A DNA stretch of 64,000 nucleotides from assembly GCA_050124795.1 (NCBI GenBank), contig JASFEO010000001.1, positions 1 through 64,000 of the forward strand, given 5' to 3'. How positions within the stretch are numbered: position 1 is the stretch's first letter; every line of letters starts with the position of its first letter. The translations under genes and the position numbers were made by a program. The notes beneath the pieces were generated by a model. The model was not told the DNA's origin. It saw only the letters and a program-made list of their open reading frames with translations, and did no database searches. Positions 15,901-59,092 of this stretch are shown here, piece by piece. This DNA is from Candidatus Pacearchaeota archaeon. Its GTDB lineage: Archaea > Nanobdellota > Nanobdellia > Pacearchaeales > GW2011-AR1.

Positions 15901-16220
15901 TCAACAATTTCAGAATCAACAGTATCATCCTTTCTTACTGTTATTTCCATTGTAATCGGTGCAGAATAAGTCAGATTTCTAAGCCTCGCTTCATAAGGCA
16001 TAACCAATGATGAACTTCCGTCAGCCTCAACTATTTTTGGCTTGTCCACTTTTATCTTGCCAAGGGTAATTTCAAAATCCTCATTATTTATTGTCTCATT
16101 AATTTCATTCACAATTTCCTGCATTCTCTTTTCAATAAAATTATTAAACGAGGTAATATTCGACTCAACTAAAGAATGATTTTCAAGATATTTTTTAACA
16201 ATTAAATGCTTATTTTCCAT
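12969..16220 (-). CDS. rpoB: DNA-directed RNA polymerase subunit B (unsplit)
   Basis: GGYFIINGNERV, GDKFATAHGQKG, RLGEME, C-terminal Zn ribbon. Confidence 0.98.
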   Translation of the reverse strand: MENKHLIVKKYLENHSLVESNITSFNNFIEKRMQEIVNEINETINNEDFEITLGKIKVDKPKIVEADGSSSLVMPYEARLRNLTYSAPITMEITVRKDDTVDSEIVEIGKIPVMVKSKVCNTQGMNKEELVENYNDPKDPGGYFIINGNERVMVMAEDLAENQPFIEDNKKGQLNLRLFSLRGTYRIPVTITENKEGIFDVTFSRFKEIPAIVVLKALGMTKESDIAKYIGSETDSVVVNLYEFADLATREDAMMYIAEKTYLQGTKKEILDRINQRVDSYLFPHIGQGKEDRKKKAITLCKLIKQFLIAKKNPKLRTDKDHYANKRVRLSGDLLATLFRVNLGILIRDIQYSLQKSTKRRKFFSIKTTAKSTLFSHRIKSAIATGSWAGERSGVTQNMDKTNYLATISQLQRVSSMLSSDQENFLARTLHPTHYGRFCPIETPEGTEIGLRKNLAILAKVSTRVTLDENKFLKDLESNGMDKEGLKETDIFFNGQFIGSVDEAKEFVKKIKEKRRDSNLPIQLSVRLDENFNIINISTEPGRVLRPLVIIEDGNPKLKSEHLIQIEQNEISWEDLLKKGIIEYLDASEEENALVALYREEITPSHTHLEIDDIDLFGVVTSLVPYGNHDQSSRLNRGSKTQKQSLGLYAANYLCKLDTDVSILQYPQKPIVRSFVYNTLDTYPAGQNLIVAIMTHEGYNMEDALVFNKGSVDRGIGRSFYFRPYNAVEMNYAGGLKDEIAVPEKDTSGYKTEESYRFLEDDGIVYPEAEMGNAEVLIGKTSPPKFLSEAREISVKTKKESSVSLRQEETGIVDAVFVTEDSQGNKIVQIKTRDQRIPELGDKFATAHGQKGVLGLVVPEEDIPFTSRGIRPDVLFNPHGLPSRMTVGYLLELLAGKVGALKGEVIDGTAFSGVSKKNLEKEMKELGFRYDGKETMYNGVTGKRIETKIFVGNLYYLKLKYMVGNRIHGRASGKVALLTRQPIEGRARGGALRLGEMEQQALVAHGASLLLKERYDSDKVTLPICTKCGNIAVDDSIRNKISCKICGSEEVEHVEVSYAFKLLMEELQGLHIHTDFELKNKYE

Positions 16221-16462
16221 TATACAACAACCCTGAAATATGTATTTACTTTGCTTCCCTCTTTTCGCTCAATTTTGACTATGTCTCCGACAACACATTC
16301 CTCAGGAAGTCCCGGGTCGCTTGAAAAAATTTTCGGCAATTGAGTTTTAGAAATATTTAATTTTGCAAGAAGTTCTTCACATTCTTTTTCATTGAGTTTA
16401 ATATGTTTGGGCTGTAGTATGTGCATTTTATCGAGGGAAATTATCAAACTGCGCATAATCAT
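16220..16462 (-). CDS. rpoH: RNA polymerase subunit H (Rpo5); start may be the downstream MHILQPKH
   Basis: HILQPKH...LPKI...DP...GDIVKIER. Confidence 0.95.
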   Translation of the reverse strand: MIMRSLIISLDKMHILQPKHIKLNEKECEELLAKLNISKTQLPKIFSSDPGLPEECVVGDIVKIERKEGSKVNTYFRVVV

Positions 16463-16586
16463 GACTTATAAACTTTTTTAACAACTTGATAATAATAAAA
16501 GTTACTAATTTTTCGTTTAAAAACCTTTCGTGTATAGTAGAATATATATTTTGTGATATATATTTTAGAGAATATAGATTGATTTG

Positions 16587-16959
16587 TTATTTTACTTGTT
16601 TTTCAAACTCCCAAAAACCCAATTTTCCTTTTGCATGAATTGGCTTAATTCTTTTAACATTTTTTAAAATAAATCCATAATTTCCCCATGAAGTATCTGC
16701 CAGATGAAGATTTTTATCTTTTTTGTGTTCTTTTTTATTTTCATATTTTTTTTACATCAACTAATTTAGCTTTGCCTAAAATAAATCCGCACGATAAATC
16801 GCAAAATCCAAATTTTTTCATAGCGCTTTTATCTGGAATTTTTGAGGCATGAATTAAAAACTCTCCACGGAATTTTGTATTCCAATTTCTCAGTTCAATT
16901 TTCTTTTTTCCATGCAAAATTAATTCTGCAAATGGCTGCTTTAGTGATAATGCTTTCAT
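16587..16959 (-). pseudogene. ASCH-domain protein frameshifted in an A8 run (16746-16753)
   Basis: LSLKQPFAELILHGKKKIELR; removing one A restores ...YGFILKNVKRIKPIHAKGKLGFWEF. Confidence 0.8.
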
Positions 16960-16999
16960 GAATATAAAAAAGAAAAGAGGGTTTTATAAATATCGATTA

Positions 17000-17088
17000 T
17001 GCCTCCGAAGGGATTTCCTTTATCTCCTAACCTTGCACAAAGTTTCTGTGCAGGCGATACTTTTACCACAAGGTTGCTCGACCCTCGA
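17000..17088 (-). repeat. Duplicated tRNA-Lys 3' end (T-arm/acceptor) interrupted by a 64-nt structured insert (17017-17080)
   Basis: Flanks TCGAGGGT and AAATCCCTTCGG match tRNA-Lys; the insert is 43/51 identical to 59001-59051. Confidence 0.8.
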
Positions 17089-17157
17089 ATTTCAATTTTG
17101 TTGAGTTTACGTGACTTTAAATCCCGGAGAATCAAAAGGATTTTTCAAATCCTCAAA

Positions 17158-17232
17158 TGGCCCCGAAGGGATTTGAACCCTCGACACCTAGGTTAAAAGC
17201 CTAGTGCTCTGACCAAGCTGAGCTACGGAGCC
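17158..17232 (-). tRNA. tRNA-Lys(UUU)
   Basis: Cloverleaf GGCTCCG...CGGGGCC-A; anticodon loop CTTTTAA; GGTTCAAATCC. Confidence 0.96.
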
Positions 17233-17274
17233 AATAAAAAATATAGAAAGAATTGGTTTATAAAACTTATCTAA

Positions 17275-18891
17275 TTAATTTTGCAGATTCCCTCTCTCTA
17301 AAAATAATTCAATATCATCTTTTTCATTACTAATTTTTTTCTTAGGCTTTTCTTTTTTCTTTCTCTTTTTCCAACTTCCAGTATTAATTATTATATTGTT
17401 CTTTTTTGTAGGAGTAATTATTCCGTCTTCATGAAAACACTTCCCGCAATAAGTATCCACCGAATTATGATGGCACATTCTAACTCTTCCATTATTATCT
17501 TTAATCATTTTTAACCAATCAGGGTGGACAAATGGTCTTGTCCATTTGTGATCCATTTCATGGCCAACAGAACCTGCAACCTTTAATTCAGGATGATATC
17601 TCCCAATCTCTTTTTCAATATCCCAATTTAATCCACTTAATTTATTATAAGGCTCTTTAGTTTTAAATCTTAATGGAAGCAGAAGAACAGGAGATTTATT
17701 TTCAAGAAAGAAATTAATATAATTCAAATCTCTTTTTGTCGGAGAATCATTTGCAATAATATGCAAAAACGGAAAAGCATTAACTTTGGAATCTCGATAC
17801 TCAAGTATTTTTTCAACTCTGTATTCATTAGGGCATTCATTTAAAACCGCTCCTTGTTCATATTCATCGCGACCAATACTATAAGGAATAACTGAATTAG
17901 TGCTTCTGAATAATTCTACTAATTCTTTTTGAAACGGAAGAAGTTTGATTGGGATGATTCCTTTTGTTTTTGTTTTAATCATTAATTCTAAAGTTTTCTT
18001 GAAATTTTCCTGTGTCGCAACTGTCCAGGATTCAGTCCATTTCCCAAATCTTAAATATTCAACTGGAAACCCTTGAGGAATATCACTATTATGTTCAGGG
18101 CAAAACCCCCCCATTAAAAGACGTTCCAATTCATTAAAATCAATTCTATGAAGTGTTTTTGAAAAAGGTTTGTTATTATGTCGTTCTGCATAACAAGGAT
18201 ATCCGCATTGACCCCATGGAGCAAAAAACCAATTTTTGAATTCTCCTTTTTCGGTAACAGGACTTCCTTCATAAGTTGCATCTTCACCAGGAATAAAACT
18301 TGTTTGGCACCCTTTTACAAAATCAATATTTGCAGGATAGATGCATTCACTAACAAATAATTTTTTCCCAATATCAAGCAATCTTTTTGGTGTAACCCAC
18401 TTAGCCTGTGTTCTTGGAATTATTTTTTCAACCTCTTCTATTTTTTCTCCACGATAATTTTTGGCAACAGCCTCGCTGCAAAATTTCGCAACATCTGCAA
18501 TAGTTCCATAAATAATATCTTGTTTCATTTCCTGAGGCAAGTCGCTTCTTAATTGTATCTGCACATCATATATCTTCATAAGCTCATTTAATAATTTTTC
18601 ATTCTGGTATCTCCGTCTTGTTCCTCCCTTGTCAATAGTTGTGATTTTGTCAGAAACTTTTAATCTTGTTTGATGACTTATTGTTCTTTTAGAATCAGTT
18701 AAGTCCTTTGATAAAAAGACATCTCCTCCACCCTCATAGCCTCCTCGTGAATAAGAAAAATGCGCAACAGCTGAAACTCCTGGTTCAGGGCAATTATAAA
18801 TATCATGATGAAAGTTGTAAGTTGCAGAATATTCCTGTCCTTTTTGTCCGACCCATTTTCCTCCTGAAAATTTTTTCATGAAAATCAACAC
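17275..18891 (-). CDS. Hypothetical protein, possibly radical-SAM/SplB-like with an expanded Cys motif
   Basis: DFVKGC-x33-CGYPCYA; C-terminal CHH...YCGKC. Confidence 0.45.
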   Translation of the reverse strand: MLIFMKKFSGGKWVGQKGQEYSATYNFHHDIYNCPEPGVSAVAHFSYSRGGYEGGGDVFLSKDLTDSKRTISHQTRLKVSDKITTIDKGGTRRRYQNEKLLNELMKIYDVQIQLRSDLPQEMKQDIIYGTIADVAKFCSEAVAKNYRGEKIEEVEKIIPRTQAKWVTPKRLLDIGKKLFVSECIYPANIDFVKGCQTSFIPGEDATYEGSPVTEKGEFKNWFFAPWGQCGYPCYAERHNNKPFSKTLHRIDFNELERLLMGGFCPEHNSDIPQGFPVEYLRFGKWTESWTVATQENFKKTLELMIKTKTKGIIPIKLLPFQKELVELFRSTNSVIPYSIGRDEYEQGAVLNECPNEYRVEKILEYRDSKVNAFPFLHIIANDSPTKRDLNYINFFLENKSPVLLLPLRFKTKEPYNKLSGLNWDIEKEIGRYHPELKVAGSVGHEMDHKWTRPFVHPDWLKMIKDNNGRVRMCHHNSVDTYCGKCFHEDGIITPTKKNNIIINTGSWKKRKKKEKPKKKISNEKDDIELFLERGNLQN

Positions 18892-49844: not shown

Positions 49845-49887
49845 TTTCTTAATTTTATCAGAACTCTTTTTCCTTTCAGGTTTTTTA

Positions 49888-50149
49888 TACAGACTCGGGA
49901 AGGTTGCTCAAAGCTCACATGCAGGCTACCTTTATTTTTTCTCAGCTCTGCGACCTGTTAAGCATCTGTGCAAATGTTTAGGGCTGCTACATTCCTGTCC
50001 TGACCCGGTTCGCAATTGCAAGATCAAAACAGACAAAGCGTCAACGTCAAAATAAAGACCTTCAAACTCACTTGTCACGTCCTTCCTTGCAGTTTGCCAT
50101 AAAGCCCGTTTGCAAATAGCGGAGGGCTAACCCGCCAACCTAGTCTGTA
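49888..50149 (-). ncRNA. ffs: Signal recognition particle (7S) RNA
   Basis: Helix-8 motif GGGTCAGGACAGGAATGTAGCAGCCC; terminal helix TACAGACT/AGTCTGTA; 5' Alu-like hairpins. Confidence 0.88.
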
Positions 50150-50201
50150 AAAATATTAAAAATAATTAGTTTTTAAAACTATGTTTTTGAGAATTTTCAA
50201 A

Positions 50202-58844: not shown

Positions 58845-58928
58845 GCGAGGGTGCCGGAGTGGTCAAACGGGCTGGACTTAAGATCCAGTAGCTTAGTGCT
58901 TGCGCAGGTTCAAATCCTGTCCCTCGCA
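58845..58928 (+). tRNA. tRNA-Leu(UAA)
   Basis: GCGAGGG/CCCTCGC-A; anticodon loop CTTAAGA; long variable arm. Confidence 0.96.
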
Positions 58929-58991
58929 TGAATGGAATTAAAAATTCCATAATTCTAGATAGAGTGTTTGCTAAATTCAAAAAGATTTATT

Positions 58992-59069
58992 TTCGAATCC
59001 GAGCAATTCCGTGGTAGAAGTATCGCCTGCACAGAAACTTCGTGCGAGATTGAGAGTTAGTCCCTCGCA
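58992..59069 (+). repeat. Duplicated tRNA-Leu 3' end interrupted by a ~59-nt structured insert
   Basis: TTCGAATCC...GTCCCTCGCA flanks; insert homologous to 17030-17080. Confidence 0.8.
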
Positions 59070-59092
59070 TTATAAACATTTTAGAATTATAC

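Follow-up and report, generated by a model that had tools for sequence, protein, structure and literature searches.

Probable Selfish Hairpin Insertions in tRNA Trailers, a tRNA Intron, RNase P RNA and Protein Genes of One Family of Small DPANN-Type Archaea

1. Introduction

The subject of this study is a short structured sequence, here called K, which occurs twice in the first 64,000 nucleotides (nt) of contig JASFEO010000001.1 (assembly GCA_050124795.1, Candidatus Pacearchaeota archaeon); this whole stretch is referred to below as the window. K is 55–85 nt long; it folds as a hairpin whose two helices covary, and its ends, CGAG...GGAG, are conserved. We consider it probable that K is a small selfish, strand-specific insertion element within one family of small DPANN-type archaea. 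This reading is based on the patchy distribution of K, which varies in copy number and within genera, its precise insertion without target duplication, its sense orientation, and its restriction to permissive sites. K survives only where it is harmless. In proteins such places are in-frame positions within surface loops, and in RNase P RNA a peripheral part; the others are the canonical intron site of tRNA-Gln(CUG) and the T-loop of redundant partial copies of tRNA 3' ends.

The genome holding the window (G000) comprises 1.06 Mb in 38 contigs, has 32% G+C, encodes an archaeal signal recognition particle (SRP) RNA and is 90% complete. Most of the relatives compared with it belong to different genera and have incomplete genomes (many 60%–90%); absence of K from them means that it was not found in those searched.

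2. Structure and Covariation of K

The consensus of K consists of CGAG, helix P1 (8 bp), UGGUA, helix P2 (5 bp; GAAGU/ACUUC across the family) around a variable loop of about 10–40 nt, GUG, the second strand of P1 (P1') and GGAG. The internal loop UGGUA/GUG is strongly conserved. In 17 copies from G000, 95.5% of the alignment cells in the helices are paired, compared with 81.6% in shuffles, and none of 500 shuffles reaches the observed values. Both sides have changed in 10 of the 13 pairs, and shifting the partner by one column lowers pairing to about 45%. A wider set of 97 copies from 31 genomes, in an alignment fitted to the covariance model R1 (built from 17 copies), gives 92.7% against 78.9%, with changes on both sides in 11 of the 13 pairs; P1 is 98% paired, and its arms covary freely (6 of 8 pairs changed on both sides). 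Since U-G pairs are frequent, the fold is specific to the sense strand.

The preliminary description of this DNA had proposed a selected, structured family that it did not recognise, and the covariation, together with the lack of any Rfam match, bears this out. Its proposal of a three-way junction held only in part: the closing stem is real and covaries in both copy sets, but the two inner hairpins (GTGGTA and GCAC types) are confined to the 'GUAUCGCCUGCACAG' loop subtype, and the fold of the family is P1 plus P2. Other structural assignments were discarded. Short units contain GAUGAG...CGA as in a hammerhead, but by eye they lack the GAAA core; a K-turn and a C/D box were weighed by eye and dropped; a D-arm-like hairpin (CUUC-GUGGUA-GAAG) is not supported by covariation in the Pro, Cys and Gln copies.

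3. Copies in G000 and the tRNA-Linked Unit

BLAST, motif scans and ARAGORN first revealed K behind many tRNA genes of G000, and model R1 finds 18 copies there, with E values from 1e-12 to 1e-17. Fourteen of them lie 25–174 nt downstream of tRNAs, all in the orientation of the tRNA: Lys-UUU, Leu-UAA, Pro-UGG, Ser-GCU, Glu-CUC, Arg-UCG, Thr-UGU, Gly-UCC, Leu on contig C11, Cys, Asp, Ala, Val-UAC and Ile-GAU. The remaining four are an intron of tRNA-Gln(CUG), one insertion in each of two reverse transcriptase (RT) gene copies, and one intergenic copy. Truncated units or K copies also follow tRNA-Arg(CCU) and tRNA-Lys(CUU).

Downstream of tRNAs, K is part of a composite unit whose order is hairpin, inverted copy of the tRNA 3' region, conserved box, direct copy of the T-stem or T-loop, K, and direct copy of the tRNA 3' end. 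At 12 of the 14 loci the left flank of K (x5) matches the 5' strand of the cognate T-stem, or the T-loop, over 6–17 nt and ends at the K boundary; at Thr the match stops 1 nt short of the boundary, and Cys shows no match. The right flank (X3), starting 0–7 nt after K, matches the cognate 3' end over 9–21 nt, often with 1–7 nt of the trailer. This places K between positions 53 and 62 of an incomplete tRNA copy that spans about positions 47–76. The right flanks are decayed at Thr, Asp and Cys, so not all of them are usable as working 3' exons.

The upstream part of the unit holds the hairpin, a T-rich stretch, and a segment (segment A) in which the T-arm and acceptor 3' region appear as their reverse complement; this antisense, fold-back match to the T-arm is significant against shuffles at 7 of the 14 loci. 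Long units carry the conserved box TAAAYTCAAGAAYRATT next after the inverted segment. In the short units (Arg-UCG, Gly-UCC and Leu on C11), the direct T-arm piece is directly preceded by its own reverse complement. The outer inverted segments derive from the target and differ from tRNA to tRNA. About 75–175 nt separate the direct repeats at the 14 loci, and the units contain no open reading frame (ORF). Tandem units were found at tRNA-Ala in G000, at Gly-UCC and Ser-UGA in the related genome G078, and in G094 and G082. Of the two successive units at tRNA-Ala (C18; L010:1-560), only the second is complete; the first lacks K and terminates in a pseudo 3' end, CCTAGGTCCAT.

4. The Two Loci of the Window

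The core of K at tRNA-Lys(UUU) occupies 57 nt at 17024..17080 on the minus strand (68 bits, E 1e-16 with model R1, and supported by covariation). The intact tRNA gene from which the duplicated 3' end derives lies at 17158..17232, also on the minus strand (ARAGORN; Rfam RF00005, 70.3 bits), as do the other parts of the unit. A hairpin with the stem AGGATTT/AAATCCT (17135..17154; from sequence and fold) stands directly 3' of the tRNA and holds GGATTTGAA, the antisense of the T-loop (antisense T-arm match, shuffle p~0). It is followed by segment A, CTCCGGGATTTAAAG (17115..17129), which reads as the T-stem and acceptor 3' strands in inverted form; this segment is able to pair with the right flank, and in the minimum free energy (MFE) fold it pairs with 17000-17016. 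The conserved box GTAAACTCAACAAAATTGAAAT, with a small A/U-stem hairpin (17089..17110), was recognised from the alignment of the two window loci and from listings of all loci, and is common to tRNA-linked units of different tRNAs and genera. The left flank TCGAGGGT (17081..17088) repeats the 5' strand of the T-stem together with T54; it matches in 8/8 positions, adjoins the core on its 5' side, with the local alignment ending at the core boundary, and is located 64 nt upstream of the repeated Lys 3' end. On the 3' side, the linker ATAAAGG (17017..17023) is an extension of one K subtype, likewise present 3' of K in the tRNA-Thr unit and in RNase P RNA from genome G008. The right flank AAATCCCTTCGGAGGCA(T) (16999..17016; 16/18 match) corresponds to tRNA-Lys positions 57-73 with 1 nt of trailer; this copy is decaying and differs from the tRNA only by G>A and C>G.

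The sister core (59000..59056, plus strand, 57 nt; 71.5 bits, E 1e-17 with R1) follows an intact tRNA-Leu(UAA) at 58845..58928 (plus strand; ARAGORN and Rfam). Between them lie a hairpin directly 3' of the tRNA, ATGGAATT/AATTCCAT (58932..58950; from sequence and fold), the conserved box CTAAATTCAAAAAGATTTAT (58971..58990; from sequence and the alignment of both loci), and a T-loop-like left flank adjoining the core, TTCGAATC (58992..58999; 7/8 to the tRNA-Leu T-loop). The right flank GTCCCTCGCAT (59060..59070) repeats exactly the final 10 nt of tRNA-Leu together with 1 nt of trailer; all these parts are on the plus strand. This sequence is found at 58919-58929 and 59060-59070 with 0.24 occurrences expected, and 2 of 100 shuffles reached two copies.

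What the preliminary description had reported of these loci stands. The tRNA-Lys 3' end, AAATCCCTTCGG.G..CA, occurs twice (17158-17174 and 17000-17016) against 0.07 expected by shuffling; the two cores are identical at 43/51 positions over a 51-nt stretch, with 8 differing; and a hairpin directly after the tRNA and the spacer box AAAYTCAA...TTCGA are common to both loci. The 30-nt centre of the core has exactly two occurrences in the window, 17040-17069 (minus) and 59011-59040 (plus), with 0 expected.

At gathering threshold, Rfam recognises in the whole window two tRNAs and the archaeal SRP RNA (49887-50150, minus strand; RF01857, 98 bits, barely over the gathering score) and nothing else, and in a permissive Rfam scan of 16960-17260 the core had no match above noise. 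The 159-nt Lys unit gave no blastn match in phage and plasmid collections. An exact-pattern scan of IMG/VR yielded three stretches, none confirmed by the covariance model (one truncated match, E 0.007) and none with a tRNA near. Among sequencing runs, a search for this DNA listed one DNA run, possibly its source, and no RNA run; contigs of that run matched 16000-18200 only as fragments of other K copies and of tRNAs, with no joints, a result that bears on neither chimerism nor polymorphism. A 65-aa ORF at 16999-17196 (plus strand), which overlaps both the unit and the tRNA from the opposite strand, is almost certainly spurious.

5. K as an Intron of tRNA-Gln(CUG)

One copy in G000 interrupts a tRNA gene: in tRNA-Gln(CUG), K forms a 63-nt intron at the canonical position 37/38. 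This copy, an ordinary tRNA intron, does not fit the interpretation given in the preliminary description. A scripted scan for the bulge-helix-bulge (BHB) motif, h(4 bp)-bulge-H(4 bp)-bulge-h, was run at all 18 G000 copies, and the full form (hBHBh') was found in tRNA-Gln(CUG) alone. There, following the anticodon stem, the central helix H is formed by C32-U35 with the GGAG of K (CUCU/GGAG), with bulges GG|U and AU|A and an h' of 3 bp; the BHB fold of the precursor lies within 0.2 kcal/mol of the MFE. Since GGAG pairs with the anticodon loop to complete the motif, the splicing endonuclease is predicted to be able to remove K. The GGAG end would thus allow a true BHB intron wherever an exon offers CUCU. 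No intron interrupts the Gln(CUG) genes observed in G123 and G084, so the K intron is a lineage-specific gain.

The copies of the window are different. Both lie in partial 3' fragments downstream of intact tRNAs and interrupt no functional gene. The scan found no match at the Lys copy. The Leu copy gave one match of A/U pairs only, with an h' of 1 bp and splice sites inside K; 33 of 200 sequences with shuffled flanks were no worse. Three tRNA-linked copies showed such A/U-only matches with 1-bp h', which were no commoner than with shuffled flanks. Lacking the splicing motif, the Lys and Leu copies are most likely inert passengers of the pre-tRNA trailer.

The intron-bearing Gln gene belongs to a cluster of three such tRNAs within 1.7 kb (G000 C3:77169-78900; L003), together with Ile-UAU, which has a 48-nt intron, and Glu-CUC, which has an unrelated 109-nt intron besides its downstream K unit. 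In relatives, some tRNA-Lys matches are split into positions 1-40 and 39-75, as by canonical introns (G056:C6:24775-25052; G042, contigs C7 and C5; G008, contigs C15 and C1); G056 has two copies of the tRNA-Lys 5' half beside one 3' half.

6. Distribution and Contexts in Related Genomes

The expectation of further copies in the genome and in its relatives was borne out by the covariance model. In a first sample, K was present in 4 of 24 genomes of the same family and in none of 16 from other families. The main census covered 150 other genera of the family and found K in 29, with 1–33 copies per genome (G087, 33; G078, 24; G059, 9). Across the order, 15 of 105 genomes of this family carried K, compared with 0 of 45 from eight other families. 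K also varies within genera, being found in one of eight species of g24 and three of five of g103.

Among 97 copies, 30 lie at most 420 nt downstream of a co-oriented tRNA, one is the Gln intron, and 66 have other contexts; wherever the strand of a host gene was determined, K has the same orientation. The tRNA-linked architecture recurs in G078 at Glu-CUC, Gly-UCC, Ser-UGA, Gly-GCC, Lys-UUU and Met, and elsewhere at Leu-CAA (G125), Thr-UGU (G144), Glu-CUC (G123), Phe (G079) and others.

K also lies inside protein genes. The topoisomerase IA gene of G099 has 57 extra nt (19 codons) relative to its 68%-identical ortholog in G000, with an ambiguity of at most 1 nt at the insertion site and no target duplication. 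Six of seven ORF-embedded copies are read through in frame, in RT copy 2 of G000, the topoisomerase (G099), a RIO/Bud32-like kinase (G042), an RsmB/F methyltransferase (G087), MnmA (G218) and a small ORF (G052); RT copy 1 of G000 has a 2-nt frameshift in a (CT)n run inside the K loop. Only the two TAG-free reading frames of K are used. The extra sequence in MnmA was confirmed by comparison of G218, which carries the segment, with its congener G023, which does not. K was also found in an otherwise full-length RNase P RNA of G008 (L019:1226-1647, 103.7 bits), where K and its AUAAAGG tail stand on the same strand between the P5/7 region and P8, and five pairs of the model at the insertion are unformed.

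A protein gene shows the same pattern as the tRNAs. In six genera (G054, G082, G122, G134, G100 and G021; loci L051, L044, L057, L061, L062 and L021), the last 30-40 nt of a HerA-like (DUF87) ATPase gene are repeated just downstream, and K lies inside the copy between CCTGGCATGG and GGAGAAGC...; at its 5' edge the copy has a short palindrome, ATGCC.GGCAT, and G082 carries the unit in tandem repeats. The architecture is therefore not tRNA-specific. Most K copies of G087 and G078 are parts of longer intergenic repeats flanked by inverted repeats. Several K copies of G078 (L098, L105, L106 and L092) have a second element of about 70 nt, TGAAAATTGCC...CACAGGTTAGGAGTA, inside the 5' strand of P1, with a 9-nt repeat GAGTAACTT/GAATAACTT, forming nested mini-elements.

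The duplication of tRNA 3' ends does not depend on K. Of 29 tRNA-Lys loci examined, from a set of 30 collected in 30 genera, only that of G000 has K, and in at least 5 of the 28 other genera a K-free tRNA-Lys is followed by a copy of its own 3' end, from which we conclude that the duplication is independent of K in the family. The K-free copies are at L116, L118, L123, L128 and L134; at L123 a 65-nt insert is flanked by a perfect repeat of some 34 nt that begins in the T-loop and extends 17 nt beyond the gene. An antisense T-loop, GGATTTGAAC, often stands directly 3' of tRNA-Lys in other genera.

7. Candidate Mobilizing Genes in G000

The RT gene bearing K is of the diversity-generating retroelement (DGR) type, with the motif LGNLTSQ, which we take to be a signature of DGR RTs, and a template/variable repeat pair (87-nt template, C2:491-577, against C4:72742-72828, 11 mismatches). 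The cassette (G000 C2:1-1722; L015) comprises a variable-repeat-like gene end at the contig start, the template repeat and the RT gene. A second, 5'-truncated RT copy (L016:1293-2186) lies 37 kb away, is 92% identical, and differs from the first by 2 nt in the (CT)n run. No BHB motif was found at the K copies of the RT genes. That K is an obligatory spliced intron here is also weakened by the homologs, whose loop at this place is length-variable and in one case encodes part of K in frame. The loop is rich in simple repeats (ERERE... in homologs), and in many relatives the RT gene is split into two adjacent frames at profile positions ~106-108, the site of K in G000 (for example, G118:C1:649129-649783, G072:C3:27391-28046 and G109:C6:29991-30633). 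It may be a slippage-prone, phase-variable site.

G000 has two IS200-type Y1 transposase genes (C26:1500-2100 and C27:8300-9000), and the ends of these IS200-like elements are unrelated to K. In the C26 copy, hairpins of the CGCAGCTCTGCTGCG type stand at both ends, and an end fragment recurs at C3:10203-10258. Pfam models of the IS110 recombinase and TnpB had no match in this 90% complete genome. Two tyrosine recombinases were found (C3:1195-1668 and C5:24061-24540), neither within 10 kb of a listed K copy.

8. Origin and Spread of K

Of the options in the preliminary description, the tiny non-autonomous mobile element fits best. The qualifier "tRNA-targeting" does not: most G000 copies are indeed in partial tRNA duplicates, but the ORF, RNase P RNA, HerA-like and MITE-like intergenic copies (MITE, miniature inverted-repeat transposable element) show that K is not tRNA-specific. 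Another suggestion, a decoy or neutralised att site, received no support from anything tested.

Several observations weigh against a selfish element. No candidate enzyme tracks K: RT was found in 13 of 29 K-positive and 43 of 121 K-negative genera, Y1 transposase in 10 of 29 and 37 of 121, and neither was found in G078, which has 24 copies (84% complete). By eye, there is no conserved target motif before K. At MnmA, G218 and G023 share only about 74% nt identity, too little to fix the boundaries of K. The unit architecture is kept across genera at Lys (G000, G078), Thr (G000, G144), Glu (G000, G078, G123) and Gly(UCC) (G000, G078), and the partial copies track their own tRNA; nt 67 of Glu is T, C or A in G000, G078 and G123, respectively, in tRNA and copy alike. 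Such tracking could mean that the copies are not junk but have been selected for a function in the host, or are homogenised by gene conversion. Nor does this reading account for how the conserved box arose. The cross-genus conservation, the tracking and the box keep the host-function and integrase-scar explanations discussed below alive.

How K moves can be proposed only tentatively. K, as a single strand, might enter hairpin loops, and snap-back (hairpin-primed) DNA synthesis might then fix a partial copy next to the parent gene; the moving strand would be either RNA, handled by a splicing ligase and a polymerase, or DNA. A replicative, single-stranded snap-back step is suggested by the inverted-then-direct order of the duplications, the palindromes at their 5' edges and the tandem arrays, for which it would account. 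A further, unlikely reading is that K is an archaeal tRNA intron family caught mobile, with the host splicing ligase and a polymerase pasting the hairpin into the loops of any RNA and the product becoming fixed in DNA; K would then be a genuine intron where GGAG meets a complementary exon and would elsewhere leave characteristic fold-back duplications of the parent gene's 3' end.

Integration scars are the best surviving rival, although we regard them as quite unlikely. Small integrative elements would have used the tRNA 3' end as att site and left attL/attR repeats, K being either the conserved end of such an element or a secondary insertion in the spare att copy. Direct repeats of 10–36 nt that begin within the T-loop or T-stem and extend beyond the tRNA are of the expected kind, as are the duplications at K-free tRNA-Lys loci, the tandem units, the tyrosine recombinases of G000 and the same pattern at the 3' end of a protein gene. 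There is a precedent in the tRNA fragments left by integrating elements in Caldiarchaeum, according to the portions of PMC3293823 at hand. However, the spacing of the repeats at the 14 loci is too uniform for random decay, and K lies within the duplicated T-arm, between x5 and X3, and not next to an att copy left whole. Because every tRNA has its own version of segment A, x5 and X3, one element would need a separate attP for each. K also inserts alone, without repeats.

It is distinctly improbable that K is part of a host-beneficial cis element of the pre-tRNA trailer, in which segment A and the right flank would mimic the top half of a tRNA and K would be a protein-binding module, serving 3' processing, termination, quality control or as a tRNA-specific decoy. 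Besides the tracking, such a role would suit the strong conservation of the UGGUA/GUG loop, the constant orientation with the tRNA, and the retention at the same tRNAs across genera of the architecture and of a hairpin whose sequence differs. It is difficult to reconcile with the presence of the unit at only 14 of the 32 Rfam-called tRNAs of G000, the absence of K from 121 of 150 related genera and from all but one of the 29 tRNA-Lys loci examined, the decayed right flanks, and the truncated units at Arg-CCU and Lys-CUU; in ORFs and other RNAs it would be senseless.

The RNA version of the mobilization step proposed above is, when fully specified, very improbable: the excised K intron would be ligated by the tRNA-splicing ligase into cleaved loops of tRNA, mRNA or RNase P RNA and reverse-transcribed, and the 5'-truncated, snapped-back cDNA would recombine beside the parent gene. 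It would agree with the sense orientation, the lack of target duplication, the RNA-type covariation with G-U pairs, and the position of insertions in hairpin loops (anticodon loop; T-loop positions 53-62). It would also agree with duplications that without exception include the parent transcript's 3' end and a few nt of its trailer, with 5'-boundary palindromes as expected of hairpin-primed second-strand synthesis, and with the presence of DGR-type RT genes, one with K. Nevertheless, RT does not track K and was not seen in G078. DGR RTs are, moreover, described as template-specific. The hypothesis offers no simple account of the conserved box or of the long inverted segment, and the RNAs of ORF copies, lacking the splicing motif, could not have released K.

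9. Comparison with Known Systems

The selfish reading of K invites comparison with known small repeats. Rickettsia palindromic elements (RPE), reportedly characterised by Ogata et al. in 2000, are similar short hairpin repeats, located in frame in unrelated protein and RNA genes of a reduced genome; to our knowledge, no transposase is known for RPE, as for K. In contrast to RPE, K is half the size, archaeal, has conserved single-stranded loop motifs and G-U-rich covariation, is tied to fold-back and direct 3'-end duplications, and is predicted to double as a spliceable tRNA intron.

Like MITEs and palindrome-associated transposable elements (PATEs), K is non-autonomous, patchy and variable in copy number, and in G087 and G078 it lies in longer units with inverted-repeat flanks; like IS200/IS605 elements, it is a strand-specific hairpin without target duplication. 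K appears to differ from IS200/IS605 PATEs in lacking, by eye, a conserved target tetranucleotide, in being unrelated to the ends of the resident IS200-like elements, and in that the Y1 transposase, although present in G000, does not track K across 150 genera. Unlike in MITEs, the terminal inverted repeats of K are not conserved in sequence, the inverted repeats of the units are target sequence, and there is no target-site duplication of fixed length (filled against empty topoisomerase site: 57 nt, repeat of at most 1 nt).

In having the tRNA 3' end directly repeated beside an intact functional gene, the K unit recalls tRNA-targeting elements of the SSV/pNOB8 type, but it has only about 75–175 nt and no genes, its distal copy is interrupted by K, and its proximal part is inverted. 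The variable/template repeat pairs of DGRs, one of which resides in G000, resemble it in having a gene 3' end with a nearby near-copy and a hairpin after the first copy; the K units differ in showing no adenine-specific mismatches, in their targets (tRNAs and a HerA-like ATPase instead of genes for variable proteins) and in their short copies (10–36 nt).

Also comparable are the BHB tRNA introns of Thermoproteales, for which "intron transposition" was evidenced by Fujishima et al. (2010), as described in the part of PMC4090602 available to us. K shares with them related short sequences at several tRNA sites, one canonical 37/38 hBHBh' intron, lineage-specific gain and, as far as that part goes, an equally obscure mechanism of transposition. 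It departs from them in that only 1 of 18 G000 copies has the splicing motif, the T-loop copies lie in non-functional partial duplicates, and K also occurs in ORFs, where it is apparently translated, in RNase P RNA and in intergenic repeats.

10. Conclusions

How introns transpose is called unknown in the part of PMC4090602 consulted, and how introns arrive remains open in the corresponding part of a preprint on Asgard tRNAs (bioRxiv 10.64898/2026.10.13.758758). As far as these portions and that of PMC3293823 allow a comparison, K is the clearest link known to us between a repeat family and tRNA intron gain. A single family links a canonical intron, T-loop insertions that cannot be spliced, in-frame insertions in housekeeping proteins and an insertion in RNase P RNA. 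In the annotation of DPANN genomes, K units produce spurious partial tRNAs, additional peptide segments and frameshifts.

With copy numbers between 0 and 33 and presence or absence within genera, the family provides defined substrates for EndA and ligase, as well as loci for strain-resolved metagenomes. K is thus a rare lead on how archaeal tRNA introns arrive, and if it is indeed a tRNA intron family caught mobile, it would offer a concrete, testable route for the gain of bulge-helix-bulge introns.

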